Shown here in pieces: positions 1,079-22,585 of a DNA stretch of 24,037 nt. Both the position numbers and the translations under genes were made by a program. Within the stretch, counting starts at the first letter, position 1, and the number at the start of each line of letters is the position of its first letter. The notes under the pieces were generated by a model, which saw only the letters and a list, made by a program, of their open reading frames with translations, had not been told where the DNA came from and searched no databases. The stretch lies in UHGV virus genome UHGV-0103738. One strand, 5' to 3'. This stretch comes from a virus.

Positions 1079-3091
1079 ATGCTTAAATTTCGCCGCGAAC
1101 TTAACGGTTACGGTGGAGTTATTAACGAAGGGCATAACGATCAATACGAATTTGAAATTGCTTTCTCCAGTGAACAGCCTTATCAGCGCCAATTCTGGGA
1201 TGAGCAAAATCAAGAAATGGTGGTATTAGATGAAATTCTGGTACATACACCGGAAGCGGTTGATCTGTCTCGTCTGAATAATAACGCTCCGTTGCTGTTT
1301 AATCATAATTTCGATAATCATTTAGGTGTCGTTTGTAACGCTCGAATCGATGCGGATAAAGTAGGCCGTGCGACCGTTAGATTCTCTAAGCATGGCACTT
1401 TGGCTAATGATATTCGTAATAAAGTCATTGAAGGTACGATGGAAAAAATTTCTGTCGGTTATGACATTAAAGAATATCACATCGATTATGCCAAAGGACA
1501 ATTGATTGTTACTAAGTTTGTTCCTTTCGAATTAAGTTTTGTTACGGTCCCGGCGGACGATTCGGTCGGTTTAAATCGCTCTCTAAATACTATCACAGTT
1601 AATTTGGAGGCTAAACGCGATATGACTAAAGAACAAATTGAAGAAATCAAAGAAGAACAAGAATCCGCTCAGGTTGAAGAAACTCCGGTAGAAGAAAATA
1701 AAGAACCGGAAGTTGAAGAAACTCAAGAGCGCCAAGTTGAAGAGAATAAAGAAGATGAAAATCTCGAAGACGGAAAAGACGCTGAACATCCTGAAAGTGT
1801 TGATGATGATAGTTCAACTGTTCGGGAAACAGAAGAAGTAAAAGAAGAACGTGAAGCTGCTCCGGTTGAAGAAGAAAAAACCGAGGAAGTGGCTGAACGT
1901 TCCGAAGAAGACGAATTAGAAATTCGCGAAATTGCACGCGAGTTAAATATTAACGAAGACGATGAAGAATTTAAACGCGCATTGGCAAATAAAGAAATTA
2001 CGCCGGAAGCATTCCGCACTAAGGCACTAAATAACATTACCAATGCTCAACGTAATAACGAACAAATTAATAAGGAACAAATCATGGAAAAAACTTTCGA
2101 TCTTAATAACGTAATCCGCTCCCTGGTAGATGGCGACGTGCTCGGCGCTAACGAAGCTGAATATTCCGCAATGGCTGCTACTGCAACTATGCAGCGTGGT
2201 CGTGCTGCTCGTGGTGGCTCTGTATTCGTTCCGGCTGCTGCTATGCGTGCTGCTGCTGATGGCAACACCAAAGCTAATCTGGTTGCTATCACTGACGAAA
2301 AACTGATGACTGAATCCTACATCGAAATGCTGTTGCCTCAGAGTGTTTTAGGCCGCCTCGGGGTGACTGTTTATAGTGGCTTGACTTCTCCGACCGCTAT
2401 TCCAAAAATGACTAAATCCAGCGTTGACGCTTTCGGATTCGTTGACGAAAATGGCGCTGCCCCCGAGTCACATGCGGAATTTTCGAACGTGAAACTGTCT
2501 CCGAAAACTTTTGCTGGTGGCAACCCGATCAGCCGTCAGTCGCTGAAAACCGTTCCGGGCATCGCTACCCTGATCACCGATCACATTAACAAATCTGTTC
2601 GGATCAAACTGGAACAACTGATTCTGTCTGATAAAGAAAATGCTCGTGGTCCGGCTGGTCTGGTTAAGCAACTGGTAGACGCTAGCCGCGTTACCAAGAA
2701 AGCTGCTTTCTCTTATAAAGACTTCCTGAAAGAAATTGCAGCACTGACTGACGCTGGCGTTCCTGCTCAGGCGATCAAGTTTGCGATGAGCGGTGCAACT
2801 GCTGCTGAACTGGAATCTACCCTGAAAGATAACGGCGTTTCCGGTTATATCATCGAAAACGGCAAACTGGCTGGTTACGAAGTAGTTACTTCTGGCGTTA
2901 TTCCGGCAGACCACATCGTTCTGGGTGACTTCTCCGGTATTACTATCGGTGAGTGGGGCGGTCTGGAACTGGATATGGATCTAACTACATACCGTGATCG
3001 TGGTGCGGTAGTGCCTCGTATCTTTGTAGATTTGGACTACGTTGTAGCACAGCCGGAAGCTCTGAAAGTTCTTCACATCTCCGCTGAATGA
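1079..3091 (+). CDS. Prohead protease / acidic scaffold-like linker / major capsid protein encoded in one reading frame (670 aa)
   Basis: Shine-Dalgarno AAAGGTGA at 1067-1074, ATG at 1079. N-terminal ~170 aa carry HK97-family prohead protease-like motifs (ISVGY, ELSFVTVPADD). A Glu/Lys-rich low-complexity segment spans ~1620-2080. The C-terminal ~335 codons switch to codons typical of highly expressed genes (ctg, cgt, ggt, gct, ttc), as expected for a major capsid protein. Stop is TGA at 3089-3091. Confidence 0.8.
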   Translation: MLKFRRELNGYGGVINEGHNDQYEFEIAFSSEQPYQRQFWDEQNQEMVVLDEILVHTPEAVDLSRLNNNAPLLFNHNFDNHLGVVCNARIDADKVGRATVRFSKHGTLANDIRNKVIEGTMEKISVGYDIKEYHIDYAKGQLIVTKFVPFELSFVTVPADDSVGLNRSLNTITVNLEAKRDMTKEQIEEIKEEQESAQVEETPVEENKEPEVEETQERQVEENKEDENLEDGKDAEHPESVDDDSSTVRETEEVKEEREAAPVEEEKTEEVAERSEEDELEIREIARELNINEDDEEFKRALANKEITPEAFRTKALNNITNAQRNNEQINKEQIMEKTFDLNNVIRSLVDGDVLGANEAEYSAMAATATMQRGRAARGGSVFVPAAAMRAAADGNTKANLVAITDEKLMTESYIEMLLPQSVLGRLGVTVYSGLTSPTAIPKMTKSSVDAFGFVDENGAAPESHAEFSNVKLSPKTFAGGNPISRQSLKTVPGIATLITDHINKSVRIKLEQLILSDKENARGPAGLVKQLVDASRVTKKAAFSYKDFLKEIAALTDAGVPAQAIKFAMSGATAAELESTLKDNGVSGYIIENGKLAGYEVVTSGVIPADHIVLGDFSGITIGEWGGLELDMDLTTYRDRGAVVPRIFVDLDYVVAQPEALKVLHISAE

Positions 3092-3988: not shown

Positions 3989-4822
3989 ATGAATATTACA
4001 CAAGATAACTTAGATATTTTCACGGGGTCACATGTTGAAGTGTCGATCTCTAACCAGATAGACAATCAGGTCGACTTTTTCGATCCTAGCTTTAGTTCCA
4101 TCGAGAACGTTGCAGCATTTCCTACGCTAACCGAATCCACAGAGATAGAAACTCTGGAAGAGTACGATCAGGACGCTACGGGGAAACTTGCTGGTTATCG
4201 TAGACTGGAACCGACAACACTCACGTTAAACCGTGTTCTGGATGACGAACATCAAGCAATGTTGATGAAAGCGGTAGAGGATAAAACACCTTTACGCTTC
4301 CGTATGTTCTATGTTGTGAACTCTGGCTATAGTGCTGCTAACACTGGTTACTATGTCATCTATGATGCTTACGTCACATCACACAAAACCCGTGGTAGTG
4401 ATAACAAAGCTGTAACACTGGAATTTAAACTTGAACCAGATGGCGGGATTTTGGATCGCGGTATTGCAACGGAGGGTCGTCTTCTCCGTCGCGGGGATTA
4501 TGGCGTAGGTGCAGGTGTACATCCATTCACAGGTCCGATTGATAGTGATGCTTTAGCCGGAAACCGTTTCGTAACTTACAAGGGAACTGCTAGCGGTAAT
4601 CCATATTCAGCCGACACATCATTAATTCACCTTCAAGCTAATGAGCATGGCGCATGGCAATTAACCTGTAATACTTCTGGCGCACCACGTTTACGCGTCC
4701 GAAATATTCAGGAAAACGGTCGCTCTGAATGGATCAAGGTATATTCCACCAATGAGAAACCGACACCTAGCGAAATTGGCGCAGTGGCTAAGACTGACCG
4801 GATCGATTTCGGCGAATACTAA
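3989..4822 (+). CDS. Tail-tube-like paralogue with a C-terminal domain carrying a tail-fibre motif (277 aa)
   Basis: SD AAGGGGTAA. N-terminal ~150 aa align by eye with the 157-aa tail tube protein (DIFTG..., AAFPTLTESTEIETLEEY vs AGFPETGIERGTVEVKSF, LRFRMFYVV vs IQIKVEYYV). The C-terminus has KVYSTNEKPTPSEIGAVAKTD, matching KMYHEGDKPTPGEIGAYTKAE in the fibre gene. Confidence 0.6.
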   Translation: MNITQDNLDIFTGSHVEVSISNQIDNQVDFFDPSFSSIENVAAFPTLTESTEIETLEEYDQDATGKLAGYRRLEPTTLTLNRVLDDEHQAMLMKAVEDKTPLRFRMFYVVNSGYSAANTGYYVIYDAYVTSHKTRGSDNKAVTLEFKLEPDGGILDRGIATEGRLLRRGDYGVGAGVHPFTGPIDSDALAGNRFVTYKGTASGNPYSADTSLIHLQANEHGAWQLTCNTSGAPRLRVRNIQENGRSEWIKVYSTNEKPTPSEIGAVAKTDRIDFGEY

Positions 4823-4854: not shown

Positions 4855-4885
4855 GGGAGGTTAACGCCTCCCTTATTCCTGTTTT
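4855..4885 (+). terminator. Terminator-like hairpin after the tube-like paralogue
   Basis: Stem GGGAGG / CCTCCC with loop TTAACG, followed by a T-rich tract (TTATTCCTGTTTTA). Confidence 0.4.
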
Positions 4886-4901: not shown

Positions 4902-7900
4902 ATGCAGTCGATCCAATTTAAACGCACACAAACGGCTGGTAAAAAACCAACGCCGGAACAATTATCACAGGGCGAGATCGCCTTACAACTGGCGGACCAT
5001 GTGATTTACACCAAAGATAAAAATAATAACGTAGTCCAAATTAGTGTTTCTCCAGAAAAACACGCTGAACTGAATACGAAAGTAGACACCAACAAGGTCA
5101 ACACAGATAAAGTCATTTCAGCAAATAAAACCGAAGCCGCTAATAATCTGGCTACGGCTAAAGCTGAACTTAATCAGACTATCACTTCTACCCGTGATAC
5201 TCTCAATGCTTCAATCACTGCTGGCGATACCGCAGCCAACAAGCGAATTGATGCTTTGACTACCACAGTAGGTAACAATAAAACCGAAGCGGCTAACGCT
5301 CTGGCGGCTGCTAAGACTGAACTGAATCAGACTATTACTTCAACCCGCGATACTATCAACGCGACAATTAACAAGAACAAGACAGATATTAATGCGCGAG
5401 TTGATCAGACGAATACCAACGTTACCAACTTAACGAATACTGTCGCAGCAAATAAATCAGCAATAGAAAAGACGGTAGCGGATAATAAGAAAGATGCGGA
5501 CACGAAGATCACCAATCTTACTAGTACGGTCTCTGCGAATAAGACAGCCATTGAAAGAACTGTTGCAAATAACAAGGCCAGTGCCGATGCCGCAATTGCC
5601 GCAGCTAACCAGCGAATTGATTCTATTGAAGGTAGTGCCGATGCTGCTTACATCAAGAAGAATACCAATACTAAGCATGGTGGGTATCTGTTAAGCAAGA
5701 CAGCTAACTATTTGGAAGACCAGACAGCGAGAGATCTTAACTACTTTGGTGCTTTCCGTACCAATGGTCAAGATGGACTCATGGATCTAACTCTTAATGT
5801 TCCTCATTCTGCCGGTAAAGCGCACGGTCGCGGATTTACTTTCCGTTATGCGTCTGGTGGATCTCGTGTTGAAACCTATGGTTTTGATAGAGAAGGACAG
5901 AAGAACTTTAGCTATAAGATGTATCACGAAGGTGATAAGCCGACTCCTGGCGAGATTGGCGCATACACCAAAGCCGAAGTTGATAAGATGTTTGTTAAAA
6001 ACGTCGTTATGTCTGTTCCCAATTCTAGCGAAAACGTATCTGCATATTTCAAATTGGCAACCGCAACAATTCCACAAAACGGGCGTAGTGTGTTTTTCCG
6101 TATTCATGGTGGTAATGGTTACAACGTTACGGCATATGATCAGGTTGACGTAGTAGAAATTCTTCTGCGTAGTGGTAACGATAGACCTAAAGGTCTTAAC
6201 GTAATTGCATACCGTAGAAATACAAACAAAGATTTTGAGGTATTTGCTGTCAATACTTCCGGTGATAACTATGATATCTACGTGAAATATCAGCGTTATA
6301 CCGATAACGTTATTGTCGAATATGGGAAATCTGTTTATGTAAGTTTGACGGTTTATGATACGCCGGAAGCCACGTTAATTAAACCTTCCGTTGGTGTTAT
6401 CGGTGGTCGCAACGTAACTCTTTTTAATACTGAAAATAAACGTGGTGTGTTAAGTTTTGATGATAACACACAAAACAGCTATGACATTGTTCACTTGAGT
6501 AACGATAAAGGTACTGGACGGAAATATATTCGTAAATTCCGTAGCAACTATAACGAAATGGTTTGGCATGAAACCGTTCAGGGTGCTGTATATCGTCTTG
6601 CTACCGGTGCTACAGATTCTACAGAAGTTATTAGAATTGATTCTAATAGTGCAATACCGGGTAATTATAAAGGATATGTAATTACTGGTAAAATGGAATT
6701 GCACGGTAGTGGTAATGCGATGACTTTACATCGCCAGACTGGTCAAGCTGCATATATGGCGTGGTGGGATCGTCGTGATGGTAAAAACCAACGTAGTGGT
6801 TATATCGGTCATGCGGATGGTACTAGTGATGGTTTTGTGTGGCGTAATGATGTTGGTGCTAACTCATTTGATTTGGAAGGTAGTGGACAAGTAAATTTGA
6901 CTACAGGAAAAACAAAAATTGTATATACCAATGGTCAATATTATTCCGCTAACGCTGATGCATTCCGTATGATTTACGGTAAGTATGGTGCATTCTGGCG
7001 AAATGATGGTGGTAAAGTTTATCTGTTGTCTACTGCCGAAAATGATAGATTTGGTGGTTGGAACGGAAACCGACCATTCATTTACGATTTGACTAACGGT
7101 AAAGTTACTTTAGGTGGTGATGGTAACGAAGGCGCATTAGTTCTCGAAAGAGATAGCCGTGCTGCTCGATTTGCTGGCGATACATATATCGAGAAAGGGT
7201 TTTTAACCTTCTCTGCTGGGAGAAGCGGATCTCGTGATTATATTCGATTTAATCATTGGGGTGATAGTAATAATGCCCGTGATAACGTTTTGTACCTAGA
7301 AGATAGTCAAGGTAGACATTTTAGCACAGAGCGTGCGATGGGTACTGGTGCTCTTAAAGCAAACTTCTTAGGCGATCTTGAAGTTGGTGGTAAGTTTACT
7401 TGGGGTAAAAATACAGCTACATCCAGCTTTAATATTCGTGCTTGGGGTAACGATAGTCGTAAACAAGTATTAGAATGTGGTGATGAAAGTGGTTGGCATT
7501 GGTATACCCAACGTCCGGGCGGTCCGGGTACTACGGCAATTGAGTTTGCCATCAACGGTACTGTTAAGCCTCAAGCAATTCACACTGGCGGTAATATCAC
7601 GCTTAACGGTGCTGATATTGAATTTCGTCGCACTGGTAATAAGCATATCTGGTTTAGAGATCCAACTGGATTAGAACTAGGTTTGATGTATTCTGATGAT
7701 GCTGGTGTTATTCGCTTCCGTGGTCAGAAACAAGCCCAGACGTGGAAACTTGCGGATAAGATGATTCATCTTGAATCTGGTAGCGTCGGCGGATCTGATA
7801 AAGGTTTGATTCGTGGTAACGTTTCTGGTGGTAGCTGGTCTAGTTGGCGCGATCGTGCATCCGGCTTGCAAGTTGATTGCCCTCAATCAACCGATTCCGC

Positions 7901-8432
7901 TCATAACATCTGGAAAGCTACTCATTGGGGTAAATATCACATTGCAGCAATGGGTGTACACGTTCCTAGCGGTACTATCGGTAACGCTCTTGTTCGTCTG
8001 CATGTTAACGATACTAACTTTGACTTTAACGCTGCTGGTGACTTTACCGCAGGTCGTAACGGTAGCTTTAACGATGTTTACATTCGCTCTGACTCCCGTT
8101 TGAAGATTAACAAGGAAGAATTACAGGACGGTGCATTAGAGAAAGTAAACTCACTGAAAGTCTACACCTACGATAAAGTTAAATCTCTTTCCGATGACAC
8201 GGTGATTAAACGCGAAGTAGGTATTATTGCTCAGGATCTGGAAAAAGTATTGCCGGAAGCAGTAGGTATTCAATCCACCGAAGATCCAGAAAATCCAGAA
8301 GCAATCAAGACTATTTCTAACTCTGCTGTCAATGCTTTAATCATCAAGGCTATGCAGGAAATGGACGCCAAATATAAAGCACAGATCGAAGCATTACAGA
8401 AAGAAATTGCCGAACTGAAAGCAACTAAATAA
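4902..8432 (+). CDS. Side (L-shaped type) tail fibre with a C-terminal intramolecular chaperone / self-cleaving domain (1176 aa)
   Basis: SD GAGGTGA. N-terminal fibre-type motifs, a repeat-rich N/T/A shaft with 51-aa repeats, and a long Gly-rich beta region. The C-terminal ~114 aa begin RSDSRLKINKEE and end in a coiled coil, as in peptidase S74-type chaperone domains of phage fibres and endosialidases (Ser/Lys spacing S1063/K1068). Confidence 0.8.
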   Translation: MQSIQFKRTQTAGKKPTPEQLSQGEIALQLADHVIYTKDKNNNVVQISVSPEKHAELNTKVDTNKVNTDKVISANKTEAANNLATAKAELNQTITSTRDTLNASITAGDTAANKRIDALTTTVGNNKTEAANALAAAKTELNQTITSTRDTINATINKNKTDINARVDQTNTNVTNLTNTVAANKSAIEKTVADNKKDADTKITNLTSTVSANKTAIERTVANNKASADAAIAAANQRIDSIEGSADAAYIKKNTNTKHGGYLLSKTANYLEDQTARDLNYFGAFRTNGQDGLMDLTLNVPHSAGKAHGRGFTFRYASGGSRVETYGFDREGQKNFSYKMYHEGDKPTPGEIGAYTKAEVDKMFVKNVVMSVPNSSENVSAYFKLATATIPQNGRSVFFRIHGGNGYNVTAYDQVDVVEILLRSGNDRPKGLNVIAYRRNTNKDFEVFAVNTSGDNYDIYVKYQRYTDNVIVEYGKSVYVSLTVYDTPEATLIKPSVGVIGGRNVTLFNTENKRGVLSFDDNTQNSYDIVHLSNDKGTGRKYIRKFRSNYNEMVWHETVQGAVYRLATGATDSTEVIRIDSNSAIPGNYKGYVITGKMELHGSGNAMTLHRQTGQAAYMAWWDRRDGKNQRSGYIGHADGTSDGFVWRNDVGANSFDLEGSGQVNLTTGKTKIVYTNGQYYSANADAFRMIYGKYGAFWRNDGGKVYLLSTAENDRFGGWNGNRPFIYDLTNGKVTLGGDGNEGALVLERDSRAARFAGDTYIEKGFLTFSAGRSGSRDYIRFNHWGDSNNARDNVLYLEDSQGRHFSTERAMGTGALKANFLGDLEVGGKFTWGKNTATSSFNIRAWGNDSRKQVLECGDESGWHWYTQRPGGPGTTAIEFAINGTVKPQAIHTGGNITLNGADIEFRRTGNKHIWFRDPTGLELGLMYSDDAGVIRFRGQKQAQTWKLADKMIHLESGSVGGSDKGLIRGNVSGGSWSSWRDRASGLQVDCPQSTDSAHNIWKATHWGKYHIAAMGVHVPSGTIGNALVRLHVNDTNFDFNAAGDFTAGRNGSFNDVYIRSDSRLKINKEELQDGALEKVNSLKVYTYDKVKSLSDDTVIKREVGIIAQDLEKVLPEAVGIQSTEDPENPEAIKTISNSAVNALIIKAMQEMDAKYKAQIEALQKEIAELKATK
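5124..5429 (+). repeat. Two tandem 153-nt (51-codon) repeat units inside the fibre shaft
   Basis: AATAAAACCGAAGC(C/G)GCTAA...CTGAA(C/T)T(T/G)AATCAGACTAT(C/T)ACTTC recurs at 5124 and 5277. Protein units are NKTEAANNLATAKAELNQTITSTRDT... and NKTEAANALAAAKTELNQTITSTRDT... Confidence 0.7.
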
Positions 8433-8488: not shown

Positions 8489-8962
8489 ATGTCTCAGCAA
8501 TTCAAAGATATTTTTACTGGTGGTCTGGTAAGTCTGTTCTATCACGCCGATACCACTAACACCGACCTTGCCGATGAAGCATACGAAGAAATTAAAGAGT
8601 GTGCTGGTTTTCCTGAAACTGGTATCGAGCGCGGTACTGTAGAAGTTAAATCCTTCTCTTCTCAGTATAACCGTAAACTGGTAGGTAAACTGAACGTTCC
8701 TGATCTGACTCTGACCGTTAACTACATTCCTGGTGATGCGGTACATGAGAAGCTCATAAAGGCTGCCGAAGACGGTACGCGTATTCAAATCAAAGTTGAA
8801 TACTATGTTGACGCCGGAAAACAGACTGGTATTCGCACTGCTTTCAACGGCTTTATTTCTAAAGTTGCTATGAACGGTGGCGATGAAGAAGTGGTAACGA
8901 AAGAGTTTACCTTTGCTGTTGATGGTGCTCCGCTGAAACAGCAAATCTTCACTGCCGGATGA
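8489..8962 (+). CDS. Major tail tube protein (157 aa)
   Basis: SD AAGGGGTAA. Strongly biased highly-expressed codon usage. Lies upstream of the chaperone and tape-measure genes and is followed by a strong terminator. Stop is TGA at 8960-8962. Confidence 0.7.
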   Translation: MSQQFKDIFTGGLVSLFYHADTTNTDLADEAYEEIKECAGFPETGIERGTVEVKSFSSQYNRKLVGKLNVPDLTLTVNYIPGDAVHEKLIKAAEDGTRIQIKVEYYVDAGKQTGIRTAFNGFISKVAMNGGDEEVVTKEFTFAVDGAPLKQQIFTAG

Positions 8963-9085: not shown

Positions 9086-9093
9086 TAATTTTA

Positions 9094-9121
9094 AGCCCTG
9101 CCTTAATGGTGGGGCTTTTTT
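9094..9121 (+). terminator. Rho-independent terminator after the tail tube gene
   Basis: Stem AGCCCTGCC / GGTGGGGCT, loop TTAAT, then a T-run. Same stem as the terminator at 3226-3252. Confidence 0.75.
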
Positions 9122-10377: not shown

Positions 10378-12810
10378 ATGACAAAACATATAGTAACAAT
10401 AGAAGGGGATAATAAAGGTCTAAGGAGAAGTACCAGTGAAGCCGCCGACCTTCTCGATAGTTTGTCTGAAAAGGCAAGTGGTATTGATTTTGGTGGTGGC
10501 TTGTCTGGTTTGACTGGATCTCTTCGTGGGATCGCTGGCTCTGCTGGTTTGGCTGCTGGTGGTATCGGCTTAGTTGCGACCGCAGTGGTTGCAGCCGCTA
10601 AAGCTGGTGCGGAATACGTTAAACAGTATTCAGAAGTATCTAAGGCGACCGGACTCTCGATTGAATCCCTTCAAAGACTAGAAAAGGAATTTTCTGGTAC
10701 TGGCCTAACAGTTGAAAAATTCGGTGATATCAACAAAGACACCTTAGATAAGATGGGTGATGCATGGGCTAACGGTGGTGGTATTGCTGATGACTTAGAA
10801 TCGGTTGGTCTTAAGTTAGAAAACTATGCTCACTTCATGACAGATCCGCAAGGTGGTATGAAAGCGGCGATCCAAGTGTTCTATGACATGAAGAAAGCCG
10901 GAAAATCAATGGCTGAAATCAAGTTCATGATGGAATCTTTAGCCAGTGATTCAAGCCATATGACCAGCCAGCTTGAGAAATATAATAGTGCTCAAGAGGC
11001 GATGATCGCTATTCAGAATCAATCTGTTAACGTCACCGAAGAAAACGCTAAAAAATATGATAAATTTTCTCAGAATATTAATAAGCTGGAAAATAACCTG
11101 AAAGGCGCAGCCATGACCATTACTGGTCCTTTGGTTGATAGCTTAAACTGGTTATTTGAATGGTTTAATATTGATTGGGAAAAGAGTTCTCTATTCAGGG
11201 CATTAGATCGACTGAATAAAGAAGGCAAGACCGCAACTGGTGGTATTCTTAACGCCAACCATAAAGACGCTCAAAAGATTATTGACAAGTACAATAAAGA
11301 AAAGCGTTGGAATAATCTAGCAGATTGGGAAAAGGCCGCGATCCGTGGTGCTGGTGTCGATCCTCGTACTGCTGGCTTTGATGTTGAAGGATTTAAGAAA
11401 CGTTTTGGTGGGTCTTATAAAACTTCAAGTGGTGCTCTGATTGTCGTAGATGCAGGTGAACATCTGACACGCAAGGCAGATCCTAACACTGATTTGACTA
11501 TACCAAATAAACCAGTAAGACCAGAATCATTGGGTAAGTCTGGCAACGAGAAGAAAGCCGAGGAAGAAGCCAAAAAGAAAGCGGAAGAGGCAGCTAAAAA
11601 GGCTAAGGAAGCCGCAGAAAAAGCACAGAAAGCACGCGAGGATGCAATCAAGCGACTGAATGCACTTGATGTTAAATTGCAAGGGCAAGTTGCAGCGTCT
11701 ATCACTTCTCAAAATAGCCAGTTGCAAAACAGCTTAAAAGATGTGAACGACGCGTTAGCTCTGGGCTTAATCTCTCAGGAAGACGCAGCCGCGAAACGCC
11801 AGGCGCTAATCGATCAGAATACTGAAAACGTTTATAAAATGATGTTGGGTGCTGATCCGATTGATGCTCTGAATGCTTTAACACAATTGCAACAAATCAG
11901 GGACAACGAGCTAGAAAGCCATAAACGGTTACTTGATGGTAAAGCTATCTCCTACGAAGAATATATGCGTCGTGTGAACGATACCGAGCAAAACTATTCT
12001 CAGATTGAAAATTCTTTACAGGGAATGGATGGTTATAAAACCAATCAATTAACTAGTGGTTATGATTATCAAGACTCAAATAATCCGTTTGCTAAATTTA
12101 ATGCAATCGATAAAGAGAAATCGGATGCTGAACAAGATTATAAGACCGATAAACTCAAGATTGACGGTATTAATGATCCGGCTAAACGGATGGAAGCATT
12201 AGAAAAACTCAATGAAAACCATCAAAAACGGATGGCTGCAATTGAAAAGAAATATGCTGATGCTCGTCAGTCAATAGCTGATGATATGTACGGCGGTTTT
12301 GCTGCTGCAATGACTCTCTTCGGGCAGGAAAACACAAAAGCTATGCAGATGGCTTTCAATGCTCATAAAGCATTCTCAATTGGACAAGCGACGGTGAACA
12401 TGTGGACGGCTGCTACCGATGCATGGAACGATCCGACCAACGTAACCACAGGTCAAAAGATCGCTGCTGCTGCATTGGCTGTTTCTCAGAACATGGGGAA
12501 CATTGCAAACATCAAGTCTACTAATGTTAGCGGTATGGCTCATGATGGTATCGATAACATCCCGCGTGAGGGTACATGGTTGCTTGATAAGGGTGAACGA
12601 GTAGTTGATCAGCGTACTAACGGTGATTTGAAAGACTTCTTATCTGCTCAAAAATCAGGCGGTGGTAACTCTCAGCCGATTGAAGTTAATGCGCCTTTGA
12701 ACATTAACGGCAACGTTAATAGCTCAGACAAGATGGTTATGGATGCTATCAAACGTCACGCTAAGTTAGTTGCTCAGGCGGTAGAAGACGCACAGCGTCG
12801 TAAGATGTAA
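10378..12810 (+). CDS. Tail tape measure protein (810 aa)
   Basis: Position after the chaperone pair. N-terminal Gly-rich hydrophobic segment, long coiled-coil and Lys/Glu/Ala-rich stretches, C-terminal Gly-rich region. Confidence 0.85.
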   Translation: MTKHIVTIEGDNKGLRRSTSEAADLLDSLSEKASGIDFGGGLSGLTGSLRGIAGSAGLAAGGIGLVATAVVAAAKAGAEYVKQYSEVSKATGLSIESLQRLEKEFSGTGLTVEKFGDINKDTLDKMGDAWANGGGIADDLESVGLKLENYAHFMTDPQGGMKAAIQVFYDMKKAGKSMAEIKFMMESLASDSSHMTSQLEKYNSAQEAMIAIQNQSVNVTEENAKKYDKFSQNINKLENNLKGAAMTITGPLVDSLNWLFEWFNIDWEKSSLFRALDRLNKEGKTATGGILNANHKDAQKIIDKYNKEKRWNNLADWEKAAIRGAGVDPRTAGFDVEGFKKRFGGSYKTSSGALIVVDAGEHLTRKADPNTDLTIPNKPVRPESLGKSGNEKKAEEEAKKKAEEAAKKAKEAAEKAQKAREDAIKRLNALDVKLQGQVAASITSQNSQLQNSLKDVNDALALGLISQEDAAAKRQALIDQNTENVYKMMLGADPIDALNALTQLQQIRDNELESHKRLLDGKAISYEEYMRRVNDTEQNYSQIENSLQGMDGYKTNQLTSGYDYQDSNNPFAKFNAIDKEKSDAEQDYKTDKLKIDGINDPAKRMEALEKLNENHQKRMAAIEKKYADARQSIADDMYGGFAAAMTLFGQENTKAMQMAFNAHKAFSIGQATVNMWTAATDAWNDPTNVTTGQKIAAAALAVSQNMGNIANIKSTNVSGMAHDGIDNIPREGTWLLDKGERVVDQRTNGDLKDFLSAQKSGGGNSQPIEVNAPLNINGNVNSSDKMVMDAIKRHAKLVAQAVEDAQRRKM

Positions 12811-14120: not shown

Positions 14121-14540
14121 ATGCTAAAAACTAGGCTTATCACCGATTACATCAATTCTTTAATAGGTCAGGAGTTCGTTCAAGGCGAGAATGATTGCAA
14201 TCTCATTGCATGTAAGATCATCGATATTCTCGCTGGTACTGACCTATATAATTCTCTTTATAAAAAATATTCAACTAAAGAAGAAGGCTTGAAAATCTGC
14301 AAAGAATTAAGCGGATATTCAAACATCCTTCAACCAATTAAGAAACATTTCAAATTAGTCACTGATGATTTACAGGACGGCGACTTACTGGTCACAGCCC
14401 ACAAATTAGGAAACCGTAATTATTATTCCGTAGTTCCTCATTATTCCGGTTATGGCCTCGTTGAAGAAGATGGTATCTGGATGACCATTCCTGTTTCAGA
14501 CATTGACTATGAACAAGTTTATAGATTCGGGGGTGAATAA
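14121..14540 (+). CDS. Tail assembly protein, gpK-like with possible NlpC/P60-type Cys motif (139 aa)
   Basis: GGAGG at 14108-14112 sits 8 nt before ATG 14121. ENDCNLIAC resembles the catalytic Cys motif of NlpC/P60 domains. Located immediately upstream of the J-like gene, with a TAATG overlap at 14538-14542. Confidence 0.5.
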   Translation: MLKTRLITDYINSLIGQEFVQGENDCNLIACKIIDILAGTDLYNSLYKKYSTKEEGLKICKELSGYSNILQPIKKHFKLVTDDLQDGDLLVTAHKLGNRNYYSVVPHYSGYGLVEEDGIWMTIPVSDIDYEQVYRFGGE

Positions 14541-17500
14541 TGGGATTTGAAATATTGGTAGGCGCGGTTATTGCTGGTGCGTCTGCTGGGATGGCTGCTG
14601 CTGCAACATTTTCTGTTATGACCGCAGTCGCTATCGGTATGGCTGCTGGTGCAATGACCTTGATCGCTTCCACTGTAGGCGCACCAAAAACACCGAAAGT
14701 ACAAAGCCCAGATAATGCGGTGACACTAGGAACATCAAACGATCCGAAGACAGTATTACCCGTTCTTTTCGGTACTACCCGCACGGGTGCAATCTGCGTT
14801 TACAAAGCAATTTCTAAGCAAGAAAACAATAAGTTAGTGCAAATCTTCGCAATTGCAGAGGGTGAAATCGACCATTACAAAGCACTATTCATCGATAACA
14901 AAAATGTTCTTGTTGGTAAGAACATGACGATCCGTGATGGTGTACTGGACAAAGGCAACATTAAAGAAGAATACCGGAAAGTTTTAGAGGTTGAGTTCCG
15001 CACTGGTAAGAATCCTAACACCGCTTTGTCACTGGCAAAACGTCACTTAGGGTCAGACTGGAACGACAACTACAAAGGCAATGGTATTGCGACCATGTGT
15101 ATTGTGTTGCGTCGTGATGACAAATCTCTTGCTGCTGGTGTTGATATTCTCCAACCAAATAGCCAGGTAGCGGTAGACGTTTGCGGGTTAAAGATTCGTA
15201 ACCTTGAAACCAATGCTATTGAGGCTAGCACTAACGGCGTGGACCAGATTTTCCATTATCTGACAAATACAAAATATGGTCTTAGTGTACCAATTGAAAA
15301 CATCAACGTTGATTCATTCCTGAAAGTACGTAAGCAAGTACGCCAGATGGATTTGCATTCAAACGGTGCATGTGATCCGAACGCCAGCTTTAAAGAGAAC
15401 TTGACTAGCCTTATGCAGACTTTCGGCGGGGTGATGTTCGAATCCTTTGGACGTATTACGCTGAAACTGGATGCTCCTGATATTGTTAAGCATACCTTCA
15501 ATGAAGACAATATCATGATGGGTAAGGTATCACTGAAAACAGGTGGCACTAACGGTTATTTCAATACCATTAACGCGATGTATCAAGAACCATCAATCGA
15601 CTATTCAGAGCAAATGCTACGTTATCCGGCTGATGCTGAAAACGATGCTACTATTCGTCAAGATGGTCGAATTATCGCTAAAGATATTGAATATCGTTTT
15701 GTTAAGTCTAAAGCCCAGATTGATAAACTTGCGAGTATTGAGCGAAATAAATCTCGTATCACTCAGGTTATCAGCTTTATGACTACTGACGCATTCACTG
15801 CCGAAGTTTGGGACGTTATCAGCGTAACCTATGATGAATTGAAGCTGAATAATTCCTTATGGCGTATTACTGCAATTGATCGCTCGATTGATTCTGGTAT
15901 TGCTGGGATGATGACTATCACCGCTACAGAATATAATTCTCAGGTTTATACTGACCTGAACTATGCGGCTAACCCAGATAACCGACCAAGTGGTTTACCG
16001 GATTCAATGACAGTACAGAAGCCTACTAATTTCAGAATTAAGGCAACTGGCGAGACGATTTACGGTAAAAACGTTACTTTGACATGGGATGCACCAGAAG
16101 ATTTTAACCGCTACGGCTTCCAGATTGATTACCGTGTAAGCGGATCACCTAACTGGATTAAGTTGGGACAGACTTCACAGCAAATTTTCAGTGTCAATGC
16201 ACTGGCAAAAGATCGTTCCTACGATTACCGAGTTTGTGCTTTCGGTATCATCGCGAGATCCGATTGGGTAGAACTGATTAACCAGAATCCTACTGTTACC
16301 TATGAATTGCCGACTCCGGTTATTCGAATCAAAAATCAGGGTAGCACGCCAGGAACTTTCGAAGGTAATGATCTGATTATCGAATGGGAAAATCAGCAAC
16401 AATTAGATGTTGAGATCAACGGTGAAACTAACAAGTTTAGTGACCTGTTTGAAGCATACATTATCAAGGTGACTAACAAGGCTGGTAAGTCTATTCAGTA
16501 CCGTACCCGCGATCCTGAATCATGGACTTATACGCTTGATATGAACCAGTTTAACGGCCTTTCGCGTCAACTTACGGTAGAAGTATCAGCTAAGGGCTAT
16601 AACAACTCAGAGAGCGCCCCAGCGCGTTTAGTGGCTATCAACCCACAACATAAGCCAATGAAAGGTTTTAGTGCGCGTGGTGGCTTTAATACTGCGTTTG
16701 TTAGCTGGGCGGATGACGTAGAACATGACTATGCAGGGTCAATCATCCAGTATGCAACCGACAACACTTTCTCAGATGCAAGGGCAGTAAGTACGAATAG
16801 TGTTAGCCATACTTCCTTTGATATTGCTGACGGTGATTATTATATCCGTGGTGCTCACTACGATATTTTCGGTATGGATGATGCTGTTTGGTCTGAACCG
16901 TATTTCATGCAAATGAAGTCTACGATTAGTTGGGACGATCAGGACAAAGAAGCACTGGAAGACCTGATCGGTTTACAAGATCGCTTAGATGAAACTATCG
17001 CGGATGCTATTAAGCAAGCTGGCGCTAATGCCGATGCTAAAATTGATGCAATGCATAAGCAAATCACTACCGAGACGGGTAAAACTGTTCAAGCCTCAGC
17101 CGATACCTTAAAGAGTCTGATTGCTTCTGGTGATAAGGCAAGTTCAACTAAGATTGATCAGGTTAAAGCTGAACTGAAAGGCGATATCACCAAAGAAGTT
17201 AGCGCCTCCGCTACAACCCTGAAACAAGCAATTGCAACCAGTGAGGCAGCAAGCGCAAGTAAGATTGATCAAGTTCGGGTAGAAATGGATGGCAAGATTG
17301 CTGGTGTGAATCAGGAAGCAGATGTAAAAATCGATGCTTTGAAAGGAACCATTAACAGCAAATACAATCTGGCGGTTAATGCAGATGGTCGCGTGGCTGG
17401 TATTCATATGAGCGCAACCAATGATCCGGCAGAACCGACAAGAATCATCTTTACGGCTGATAAAATCGCGGTAGCTCCACAGAATGGATCGGGGGTATGT

Positions 17501-18316
17501 CCGTTTGGTATCGAAGGTAACAAGGTTTATCTCGATAATGCGATGATTCGTAATGCTGCAATTGGTACAGCCCAGATTAATGATGCGGCGATTACTACTG
17601 CCAAGATCGGCAATGCCGCAATTAACAGCGCGAAGATTCAGGACGGGGCAATCACTAACGCCAAGATCGTAAACGGTGCAATTGATAACGCCAAAATTGG
17701 TAACTATATCCAGTCTTCCAACTGGAACGGATCAACCGGATGGCATATCAACAAGAACGGGTCCGCTACGTTCATGAACGCTACCGTTAAAGGTAATATC
17801 ACGGCTGATTCTGGTACTCTGAACAACGTCACGATTAACTCTAGCTGTGTTATTAAGGGTATGCTTGAAGCTACTCAGGTTAAGGGTGATTTCGTTAAGG
17901 TGATTGGTCGTAAGTTCCCACACCGTGATGTTAACGTTGATAATGGTTATGGCGGCTATCCGCAAGGTACAGTAACCGTTCGCGTTGAAGATGATCACAA
18001 GTTCGATCGTCAAATCGTTATTCCGGCGATTAGTTTTGGTGGATTGCGAGCGCGTGAAGGGTCGAACAATAATACCTATTACGACACCTGTCGCCTGATT
18101 GTTCGTAAGAATGGGTCAGAGTTGTATAATAGGGCGTATGGCGGTAATACTGGTCTTTACTCAGGTGTTATTGATATGCCAGCGGGTAAAGGTGCTGTGA
18201 CCTTGACCTTTGAAGTGCAATCAAGCGCAATCAACAACTGGACGCCTAGCACATGGATCAGTGATTTAACTGTAATGGTAACTAAAAAAGCCACTACGGG
18301 TATTACTGTTTCTTAA
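14540..18316 (+). CDS. Central tail fibre / tip attachment protein, lambda gpJ-like, with an N-terminal gpI-like hydrophobic domain (1258 aa)
   Basis: C-terminal ~150 aa resemble the remembered lambda J C-terminus (TLNNVTINSSC..., VEDDHKFDRQIVIP, VIDMPAGKGAVTLTF, DLTVMVTKK). Fibronectin III-like segment around 16000-16300. N-terminal Ala/Gly-rich hydrophobic region followed by APKTPKVQ...VLPVLFG, resembling the lambda gpI C-terminus. Confidence 0.85.
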   Translation: MGFEILVGAVIAGASAGMAAAATFSVMTAVAIGMAAGAMTLIASTVGAPKTPKVQSPDNAVTLGTSNDPKTVLPVLFGTTRTGAICVYKAISKQENNKLVQIFAIAEGEIDHYKALFIDNKNVLVGKNMTIRDGVLDKGNIKEEYRKVLEVEFRTGKNPNTALSLAKRHLGSDWNDNYKGNGIATMCIVLRRDDKSLAAGVDILQPNSQVAVDVCGLKIRNLETNAIEASTNGVDQIFHYLTNTKYGLSVPIENINVDSFLKVRKQVRQMDLHSNGACDPNASFKENLTSLMQTFGGVMFESFGRITLKLDAPDIVKHTFNEDNIMMGKVSLKTGGTNGYFNTINAMYQEPSIDYSEQMLRYPADAENDATIRQDGRIIAKDIEYRFVKSKAQIDKLASIERNKSRITQVISFMTTDAFTAEVWDVISVTYDELKLNNSLWRITAIDRSIDSGIAGMMTITATEYNSQVYTDLNYAANPDNRPSGLPDSMTVQKPTNFRIKATGETIYGKNVTLTWDAPEDFNRYGFQIDYRVSGSPNWIKLGQTSQQIFSVNALAKDRSYDYRVCAFGIIARSDWVELINQNPTVTYELPTPVIRIKNQGSTPGTFEGNDLIIEWENQQQLDVEINGETNKFSDLFEAYIIKVTNKAGKSIQYRTRDPESWTYTLDMNQFNGLSRQLTVEVSAKGYNNSESAPARLVAINPQHKPMKGFSARGGFNTAFVSWADDVEHDYAGSIIQYATDNTFSDARAVSTNSVSHTSFDIADGDYYIRGAHYDIFGMDDAVWSEPYFMQMKSTISWDDQDKEALEDLIGLQDRLDETIADAIKQAGANADAKIDAMHKQITTETGKTVQASADTLKSLIASGDKASSTKIDQVKAELKGDITKEVSASATTLKQAIATSEAASASKIDQVRVEMDGKIAGVNQEADVKIDALKGTINSKYNLAVNADGRVAGIHMSATNDPAEPTRIIFTADKIAVAPQNGSGVCPFGIEGNKVYLDNAMIRNAAIGTAQINDAAITTAKIGNAAINSAKIQDGAITNAKIVNGAIDNAKIGNYIQSSNWNGSTGWHINKNGSATFMNATVKGNITADSGTLNNVTINSSCVIKGMLEATQVKGDFVKVIGRKFPHRDVNVDNGYGGYPQGTVTVRVEDDHKFDRQIVIPAISFGGLRAREGSNNNTYYDTCRLIVRKNGSELYNRAYGGNTGLYSGVIDMPAGKGAVTLTFEVQSSAINNWTPSTWISDLTVMVTKKATTGITVS

Positions 18317-20856: not shown

Positions 20857-22536
20857 TTAAATTCCAAATTCTTGTAATGGACCTGGTATTTCTTCTTCTG
20901 GTTTCCAGTTCTTATCTGTCAGCATGTCTAAACATGGATGCAGAACAAGCCCGTTACTCTCCAGAATCTGCCTATCATTGATAGTCTTCAAATCAACGAA
21001 GATCCGGCCTTTCCTCGGTCCTCTTGAATTTTCTATTACAACTCTCTGGGTCTTGCCATCGATGTATTCCAGTACAAACAAGTTTTTGTACTTGTCAATC
21101 CTGCTACACCCGATCCGTTTTAGAGCTTGCTTAATCTTAAACCGGACCTTAATGCGATCCTCGTTGTAAACATCTTCTAAATCAAATTCTGCGAGCTTCT
21201 CCCAGCCTTGAGAGTCAACAGAATACATTTCCTCTTCTGCCATCTTAAGTTGATTGTAGAGTGTTTCACGCTCGCTATTGAGGGTAGTAATCTGATCGGC
21301 TAGCTCCTTCGTTGCTCCTGTCATAGCAGAAAGGGTAATCAGGTTATCAATCTTGCGTGATATTTCATCAATCTGTACTTTCAAAGCCGGAACCGGATTA
21401 GCCTTATCTTCAGCAATCCAGATTTTATCAGCCAGCAATTGCAATACAGCTTTCTCTAATTGGTCGCCGCGAAAACTCCAGTTTGTATGCACACATTCAA
21501 TACGACTAGAGCGCATTGCATCGCATGAATAACGATATTGGTTAGGCCGTCTGTTTGTTCCTTTCACCTTAACCATAGCGGAACCGCAATGTTCACATTT
21601 CAATAGACCAACACCACTAAGCAAGGGAATAGGTTTAGCTTCTTCTTTGTCTCCAAAGTTACATGCTCTAACACCAATGCTTTTCTTAAGGTGATAAAAC
21701 TCAGCGTCATCTAGCACACGAGGATAATAATCCTTTAACTCATACTTAACGCCATCTACAGAGATTTCCTTGATACCAATCAAAGCGCGGGTATGGAACA
21801 ACCTTTCAATCATTGCCCGTGACCAGTTTGAATGCCTCTTGTGACTTGCGGCTGGTGGTGGTGTGTATGTCGCGTTAAGGTGATCCAGTATCTCGGCGGT
21901 TGACCGTCCATTCCTGCGTAATTCCACAACTTCCTGAACAATAGGGAAGAAGACCGGATGAGGAAGCACATAACCAGATGTGGTATCAGTCCACCACATA
22001 TTCTTTCCAATTTCCTCGATTGCAACAGCCGGATTTTGTGGATTTTCTTGATGAGCTTTAATCTTAATCAGTGCGCTTGAGTTAGTACGATTGCGCTTAG
22101 TCTGGCTTTCCTCATTACCACGGATGAATAAAAGGATGGAGAACATCAGGTCCATCGGGTTAGCGGTAACAGTATCAAGCGAGTAGATCTTGTTATCCAT
22201 GCCAGTAACAATGGTTATCCCCCTACGGATGATTGAAAGGAATAACTCCTGTGCACTGACAATATCGGCACGGGATAAACGGTCCAAGTTTTCGATGAAT
22301 AGCCAGCTACCAACAGGAACGGATCTACCTATTGCATCAAGGAAACGAGATAGCGCCCCTGTTTTGGAGTTAGCACCCTTAAACGCAGATACACCCAGAT
22401 CCTGATAATCATTTACCAGTTCAAGGTCATACTTTACCGCAATCTCTCTAGCCATCCTGATTTGTCGTTCATAACTCGAACCATCATTCTGACGCATAGA
22501 CGAGAAGCGAATATACGAATACAGTTTAGTTTTCAT
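20857..22536 (-). CDS. Large serine recombinase (integrase/resolvase family, ~559 aa from ATG 22536)
   Basis: N-terminal catalytic motif YIRFSSMRQ (Arg/Ser/Gln spacing of serine recombinases) and ENLDRLSR. Central recombinase region. Cys cluster CEHCGSAMV...YRYSCDAM...ECVH (zinc-ribbon-like), then a coiled coil. Track start is a TTG at 22551; the first ATG is at 22536. Confidence 0.85.
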   Translation of the reverse strand: MKTKLYSYIRFSSMRQNDGSSYERQIRMAREIAVKYDLELVNDYQDLGVSAFKGANSKTGALSRFLDAIGRSVPVGSWLFIENLDRLSRADIVSAQELFLSIIRRGITIVTGMDNKIYSLDTVTANPMDLMFSILLFIRGNEESQTKRNRTNSSALIKIKAHQENPQNPAVAIEEIGKNMWWTDTTSGYVLPHPVFFPIVQEVVELRRNGRSTAEILDHLNATYTPPPAASHKRHSNWSRAMIERLFHTRALIGIKEISVDGVKYELKDYYPRVLDDAEFYHLKKSIGVRACNFGDKEEAKPIPLLSGVGLLKCEHCGSAMVKVKGTNRRPNQYRYSCDAMRSSRIECVHTNWSFRGDQLEKAVLQLLADKIWIAEDKANPVPALKVQIDEISRKIDNLITLSAMTGATKELADQITTLNSERETLYNQLKMAEEEMYSVDSQGWEKLAEFDLEDVYNEDRIKVRFKIKQALKRIGCSRIDKYKNLFVLEYIDGKTQRVVIENSRGPRKGRIFVDLKTINDRQILESNGLVLHPCLDMLTDKNWKPEEEIPGPLQEFGI

Positions 22537-22545
22537 ACCATTTCC

Positions 22546-22585
22546 AAACAAAAACGCCCCTACCGCGTATTATAACGATAGGGGC
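22546..22585 (-). terminator. Hairpin with T-run immediately upstream of the recombinase start (– strand)
   Basis: 10-bp stem whose one imperfect position is a G-U pair only in the – strand transcript, followed on the – strand by GTTTTTGTTT. The loop contains TTATAAT. Confidence 0.5.

Follow-up and report, generated by a model that had tools for sequence, protein, structure and literature searches.

A probable old in-register duplication in the predicted helical stalk of a gp37-like tail fibre from a temperate siphovirus

The fibre gene and its genome neighbourhood

The window, meaning the whole 24,037-nt stretch of UHGV virus genome UHGV-0103738 that was analysed, is 92–96% identical to prophages of ~21 of 5426 complete E. 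coli genomes. Its overall GC content of ~42% is well under the E. coli average. The genes around the fibre gene were assigned as follows:

1079–3091 (+): protease-capsid fusion, 670 aa, with a Peptidase_S78 prohead protease (aa 40–162) and an HK97-type major capsid domain (aa 414–666)
3989–4822 (+): tube-like ORF, 277 aa, with a weak match to PHROG 'major tail protein' (5.8e-9)
8489–8962 (+): lambda-like tail tube protein, 157 aa
9137–9643 (+): gp38-like tail-fibre adhesin, 168 aa (PHROG 1121 'tail fiber adhesin', 1.7e-34)
10378–12810: 810-aa ORF in the tape-measure position, without informative Pfam match
14540–18316: gpJ-like tip protein
20857–22551 (-): large serine recombinase, 564 aa, with Resolvase, Recombinase and Zn_ribbon_recom domains

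These neighbours make up a lambda-like siphovirus module, which also contains a distal tail protein gene. The size and position of the 810-aa ORF suggest that it encodes the tape measure, and the recombinase is presumably the prophage integrase. No homologues of gp34, gp35 or gp36 were found among the scanned window ORFs, and Rfam and tRNA scans of the window returned nothing. Short 15- and 24-nt repeats were reported by Tandem Repeats Finder (TRF) at 1668–1753, within the protease-capsid ORF, and a 24-nt repeat of 2.1 copies (AAGAAAGCCGAAGAAGAAGCCAAA) is present at 11551–11601, within the 810-aa ORF.

The fibre gene is located between two tube-like genes, and for a long fibre gene a place between the head and tail-tube genes is unusual. 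Terminator-like hairpins at 4855–4872 and 9093–9117 (+) bracket the fibre and tube gene pair; the first (GGGAGGTTAACGCCTCCC) is located 30 nt before the start codon of the fibre gene, and the second, after the tube gene, has a 10-bp stem with a T-run. Between the fibre and adhesin genes are the tail tube gene and a strong terminator-like hairpin. The orthologue of the adhesin in a related prophage (L022) carries Pfam Gp38_N, and 'receptor recognizing protein Gp38' is the RefSeq name for this kind of product in E. coli homologues. The window product and the 'tail fibre adhesin' of Stx phages, for example P13374, share ~45% identity. The adhesin is a probable tip partner of the fibre.

A gp37-type fibre with an inserted stalk

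The fibre gene, whose E. coli homologues are annotated 'tail fiber domain-containing protein', was divided into the following parts:

4902–8432 (+): tail-fibre gene with repeats, 1176 aa (Pfam Gp34_trimer, 1e-36; Peptidase_S74, 8e-14)
4902–5054 (+): N-terminal attachment-type domain, aa 1–51, a small beta domain common to T-even gp37
5052–5633 (+): continuous alpha-helical stalk, aa 51–244, ~29 nm, as predicted from AlphaFold2 (AF2) and hydrophobic periodicity
5685–8420 (+): gp37-type distal long-tail-fibre body, from nt and aa identity to RB49-like gp37
8088–8264 (+): Peptidase_S74 intramolecular chaperone domain, aa 1063–1121 (Pfam, 8.2e-14)

Gp34_trimer covers aa 617–728, and Peptidase_S74 is a predicted C-terminal self-cleaving chaperone, a mark of gp37-type fibres. 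At the N-terminal end, aa 1–51 are 37% identical to aa 4–54 of RB49 gp37, and aa 3–48 match PHROG 1699 'long tail fiber distal subunit' (7.8e-17). The remainder of the likeness is in the body, where aa 262–1173 are 76% identical over 912 aa to RB49 gp37 aa 71–977 and the DNA of 5685–8363 is 77–83% identical to gp37 of RB49-like T-even phages; outside 5685–8363, no DNA match to sequenced phages was found in the window. As RB49 gp37 matches only residues 1–51 and 262–1173, the stalk is an insert relative to the T-even fibre.

Searches of wider collections gave a similar picture for the N-terminal part. A megablast search of 4902–5750 against phage DNA matched only the final 65 nt. When the N-terminal 261 aa were compared with 50,697 phage records by tblastn, only the first 50–116 residues were matched in isolated phages, and the ~210-residue stalk insert was present in none of the records. 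A sequence search of the PDB with the fibre returned the Gp34-type domain only (aa ~637–742), with no match for the stalk. A scan of a genome collection, uninformative because it holds one genome per species, gave one distant match in a Bacteroidetes MAG (32% identity).

The mosaic junction at ~5685, ahead of which the first 780 nt of the fibre gene are without a phage match, is a sharp border between temperate siphovirus and virulent T-even myovirus sequence. The GC profile has no compositional break at this point, and the direction of transfer therefore cannot be inferred from it.

The 51-codon repeat pair

Two repeat units are located within the stalk:

5124–5276 (+): repeat unit 1, 51 codons, aa 75–125, with a conserved head at 5124–5215
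5277–5429 (+): repeat unit 2, 51 codons, aa 126–176, with a conserved head at 5277–5368

A direct-repeat search paired 5124–5215 with 5277–5368 (92 nt, 82% identical, spacing 153). Aligned in register, the two units share 73/90 nt (81%) at the front and 31/63 (49%) behind, which amounts to 104/153 (68%) for the whole unit; in the protein, 26/32 residues are identical at the front and 7/19 in the tail. The original prediction, made from the letters of the DNA, of two consecutive 51-codon units that are alike over ~90 nt and then diverge is borne out by these values. There are two copies of the 153-nt unit, and a recognisable DNA duplicate extends over only ~92 nt of each. Head-to-tail copies of high DNA identity, the hallmark of a variable-number tandem repeat, are not what is found at 5124–5429, and the 153-nt period was not detected by TRF (minimum score 30).

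It might be argued that no duplication took place and that the likeness of the units reflects convergence or the composition bias of an Asn/Thr/Ala-rich coiled coil, given that similar 11/18-residue motifs make up the entire stalk and that the unit tails are only 49% identical. This we regard as very improbable, because the identity of 19/32 third codon positions accompanies that of the 26/32 residues, and because 200 composition-keeping codon shuffles of 4902–5702 gave a mean 90-nt match of 45.5 (sd 1.6, max 51), placing the observed 73/90 ~17 sd higher. The pair is the top 90-nt off-diagonal match of the entire fibre gene, and 153 is the top in-frame offset across 5040–5650; the periodicity thus goes beyond composition bias, as had been anticipated. 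Over the first 32 codons (96 nt), 17 codons differ, 11 of them synonymously and 6 non-synonymously, and 13 of the 20 nucleotide differences fall at third positions. This bias points to common descent of the two units under purifying selection.

The presence of two similar DNA segments inside a receptor-binding-protein gene also calls to mind the template and variable repeats of a diversity-generating retroelement (DGR), or some other targeted hypervariation system, to which we give hardly any chance. The mismatched bases in unit 1 are T9, C5, A4 and G2, with 10 transitions and 10 transversions, and are not adenine-specific; this unbiased spectrum rules out a DGR-type mechanism. No reverse transcriptase domain was found among the scanned window ORFs, both copies belong in frame to a single helix at a distance from the receptor-binding end, and between genomes unit 2 is 96–100% conserved.

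Sub-repeats of the stalk

Downstream of the pair, two shorter sub-repeats follow one another:

5451–5537 (+): 29-residue sub-repeat (11+18), NKSAIEKTVADNKKDADTKITNLTSTVSA
5538–5624 (+): 29-residue sub-repeat, NKTAIERTVANNKASADAAIAAANQRIDS

They open with NKSAIEKTVA (aa 184–193, nt 5451–5480) and NKTAIERTVA (aa 213–222, nt 5538–5567), 29 residues apart, in agreement with the expectation that further NKxAIE(K/R)TVA repeats would be present. At the DNA level the two 87-nt units are identical at only 43/87 nt. When the stalk sequence was split at the recurring V-x-x-N-K motif, which was used to set the module borders, it resolved into pieces of 11 residues (TAIExTVxxNK) and 18 residues (xDADxKIxxLTxTVxxNK), so that 29 = 11+18 and 51 = 18+11+11+11.

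A 29-residue unit resembling the stalk sub-repeat (LQSDVDQNEADADAAITSLSGAVAADLAA) is found in >20 near-perfect tandem copies at residues ~1200–1800 of an unrelated protein of 2017 aa (P0016), which indicates that the 29-residue module is open to strong amplification elsewhere.

Predicted structure of the stalk

A model of aa 1–300 was obtained with AF2 for the monomer, using a shallow alignment of 9 sequences. It predicts strands at 26–29, 34–38 and 44–46 in the N-terminal domain, followed by a single unbroken helix at 51–244 (pLDDT 91–99). The repeats had been assigned to a fibre shaft, which is right in that they are in the rod-like part of a tail-fibre gene, but the model indicates an alpha-helical stalk and not a beta-structured shaft. 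Across 191 stalk residues there are no Pro and 3 Gly.

The hydrophobicity spectrum of the stalk peaks at a period of 3.625 = 29/8 with a power of 93.8, exceeding all of 300 shuffles (26.6±12.5, max 85.8); a second peak of similar size (84) near a period of 2.0–2.3 counts against the reading preferred here. The stripe at 3.625 holds 13/14 Ile, 8/9 Leu and 7/10 Val (28/33) as well as seven Asn, and its phase drifts by only ~40° along 193 residues. In the 174- and 221-residue stalks of related fibres (described below), the periodicity is 3.60–3.625. With a long helix and a coherent stripe, the stalk is probably a non-heptad (29/8) alpha-helical coiled coil.

The 51-residue unit corresponds to 14.07 helical turns, or ~7.6 nm, and its duplication would thus lengthen the rod with the core register kept. 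Preservation of the register is a property of the individual modules and not of every net difference between alleles, since the allele classes differ in net length by 28 and 19 residues, neither of which makes a whole number of turns.

Fibres bearing an S74 domain are homotrimeric. The S74 chaperone and Gp34_trimer domains of the window fibre suggest such a homotrimer, in which the stalk is most likely a parallel three-stranded coiled coil. A Foldseek comparison of the AF2 model with the PDB returned nothing at E < 0.5, which is unsurprising for a single long helix. A weak, sub-threshold Pfam Apolipoprotein match at aa 69–217 (E 0.0014, 18.8 bits against a cut-off of 90) can be attributed to the 3.6–3.67 periodicity.

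Variation among related fibre genes

A total of 34 fibre genes were compared: 19 from complete E. coli genomes, 14 from IMG/VR loci, and that of the window. Counting copies of the NKxEAAN unit, they are distributed as follows:

two copies: 17 fibre genes, window included; stalk of 193 residues
one copy: 16 fibre genes; stalk of 221 residues, with more 29-residue modules
zero copies: 1 fibre gene (L012); stalk of 174 residues

No three-copy allele was found among the 34 fibre genes or in wider protein database clusters. Seven complete E. coli chromosomes and 9 IMG/VR contigs share the two-copy arrangement, with the units placed at residues 75 and 126 as in the window. These genomes refute the notion that the duplication is an artefact of the assembly of the window, which nothing specific favours and for which next to no likelihood is left.

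The paralogous units of each two-copy genome are 76–82% identical, whereas orthologous units are 91–100% identical between genomes (complete-genome means: unit 1, 95%; unit 2, 98%). The duplication is therefore much older than the divergence of the prophages and has since remained stable.

Alignment of the allele classes revealed indels of 11, 18 and 47 residues. Between two-copy and one-copy alleles, a block of 29-residue modules is replaced by the head of unit 2, and the tail of unit 2 aligns with another module (INNKVNTTNTNVSNLT) of the one-copy alleles. Two alleles (L005 and L010) are recombinants with a window-type front and a rear typical of the 221-residue class. These indels and recombinants suggest that modular reshuffling shaped the stalk in the past. 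More distant homologues (P0013, P0014, P0017 and P0020) share the N-terminal domain, after which come helical segments that differ considerably in length and sequence. In E. coli E275a (L018, 4720–6037), an IS2 insertion cuts short the orthologous fibre gene.

The repeats had also been proposed to be substrates for recombinational length variation of the fibre and to cause assembly collapse in short-read data. Were the units an active tandem repeat, they would recombine now, giving ongoing variation in fibre copy number along with short-read mis-assembly. Related fibres do hold 0, 1 or 2 copies, with N-terminal regions of 240, 259 or 287 aa, and three database protein fragments (P0006, P0007 and P0015) start within unit 1. 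However, the 81% identity extends over only 90 nt, with 17 mismatches, and the two units have no exact word in common longer than 14 nt. For RecA to recombine DNA efficiently in E. coli, ~20–30 nt of perfect identity are usually needed, and the shared words fall short of this and of the usual assembler k-mers; in the N-terminal part of the relatives, direct exact repeats are 11–26 nt at their longest.

The alleles themselves also argue against current activity. The other 16/16 two-copy alleles have the same diverged pair, none with three copies, and one-copy alleles differ from them by block replacement and not by clean loss of a unit. Whole-unit copy variation was not seen between close relatives, the 0, 1 and 2 copies being on deeply diverged haplotypes. 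As for the fragments, a near-identical fibre gene in L022 (2699–6208, GCA_900603405.1) is split into three ORFs, the first break being attributable to three 1-nt indels inside unit 1, with both units present, and is a sequencing error or a pseudogene, while P0007 is on an 899-nt contig that is fibre-coding throughout. Fragments starting in unit 1 are thus accounted for by 1-nt indels or short contigs and not by repeat collapse.

The pair is too diverged for active recombination or an assembly problem at present. Homologous recombination between the units today is unlikely, and the proposal of an active repeat is already largely refuted. What stands of it is length variation through past reshuffling of modules, as the relatives do differ in length; neither hypervariable copy number today nor collapse on short reads is supported. 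A comparison of copy number among relatives, which had been suggested as a check, does yield 0, 1 or 2 copies, but with the same diverged pair in every two-copy allele and never three.

Discussion

We interpret the repeat pair as an old, in-register partial duplication in a modular coiled-coil spacer that joins a gp37-type attachment domain to a receptor-binding body in a temperate siphovirus, and put the probability of this reading at roughly 0.8. A 51-residue segment would have been duplicated in frame long ago, and since partly eroded, inside a helical stalk of 194 residues, whose 11- and 18-residue sub-repeats would give the hydrophobic stripe its period of 29/8. The duplicated unit would extend the rod by ~7.6 nm without breaking the core register. 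Placed between the gp37-type N-terminal domain and the distal body, where RB49 gp37 has ~16 residues, the stalk most likely serves as a rigid spacer and determines how far the receptor-binding end extends. The stalks of 174, 193 and 221 residues may be products of past recombination between sub-repeats, either unequal or inter-allelic.

The window fibre is similar to the gp37 of RB49-like phages (Krischvirus) in its N-terminal domain (37%) and body (76% over 912 aa, 77–83% at the DNA level), and it too has a Peptidase_S74 domain and a nearby gp38-like adhesin gene. The organisation of RB49 gp37 and gp38 has been described by Efimov et al. 2022 (PMC9569957). In contrast to RB49 gp37, the window fibre has a ~210-residue, repeat-bearing stalk segment in place of ~16 residues, and a tail tube gene intervenes between the fibre gene and the adhesin gene. 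Unlike the T-even phages, the window represents a temperate lambda-like siphovirus prophage without gp34–36; joining to a proximal half-fibre through gp35/gp36, which characterises T-even gp37, has no counterpart in the window.

Other rods built of repeated segments offer a further comparison. Work by Letarov et al. from 2005 is said to describe rods of the T4 fibritin (gpwac) type as trimeric and helical, made of repeated segments that are gained and lost among related phages. The stalk resembles T4 fibritin in being a predicted helical rod built from repeated segments that differ in number and length between relatives. No sequence relationship between the two was detected (no Pfam match), and fibritin consists mainly of heptads, whereas the window stalk has a 29/8 periodicity and is fused to a receptor-binding fibre body. 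SF-assemblin is a coiled coil of 29-residue repeats, each of four heptads and a skip residue, and apolipoproteins contain amphipathic helices of 11/22 residues. The stalk shares with both a periodicity of 3.6–3.67 residues, which is an analogy only and not homology. Truebestein and Leonard 2016 (PMC5082667) deal with coiled coils as molecular spacers, in which the sequence diverges freely and rod length is the functional variable; the stalk is similar to such spacers in this respect but differs from them in that its lengths fall into discrete allelic classes of 174, 193 and 221 residues.

More speculatively, the stalk may be an adaptor that fits a T-even distal half-fibre, made up of the gp37 body and the gp38 adhesin, to a lambda-like siphovirus, replacing the absent proximal half-fibre (gp34–36) as a rigid arm of 26–33 nm, with allelic lengths (174, 193 and 221) that arise from shuffling of 11-, 18-, 29- and 51-residue modules and are tuned to the depth of O-antigen or capsule. 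We offer this tentatively, as a possibility that may well not hold.

Under the reading that we prefer, that of an old partial duplication in a modular spacer, the repeat is an ordinary building pattern of segmented helical fibre rods, amid the well-known mosaicism of tail fibres. The repeat itself carries little weight, being stable, harmless to assembly and of a familiar modular-rod pattern. The fibre as a whole offers a clear-cut case from nature in which a T-even receptor-binding module has been grafted onto a temperate siphovirus by way of a length-variable helical spacer, and the register-preserving module sizes (11, 18, 29 and 51 residues) could guide the engineering of fibre length and work on phage host range.
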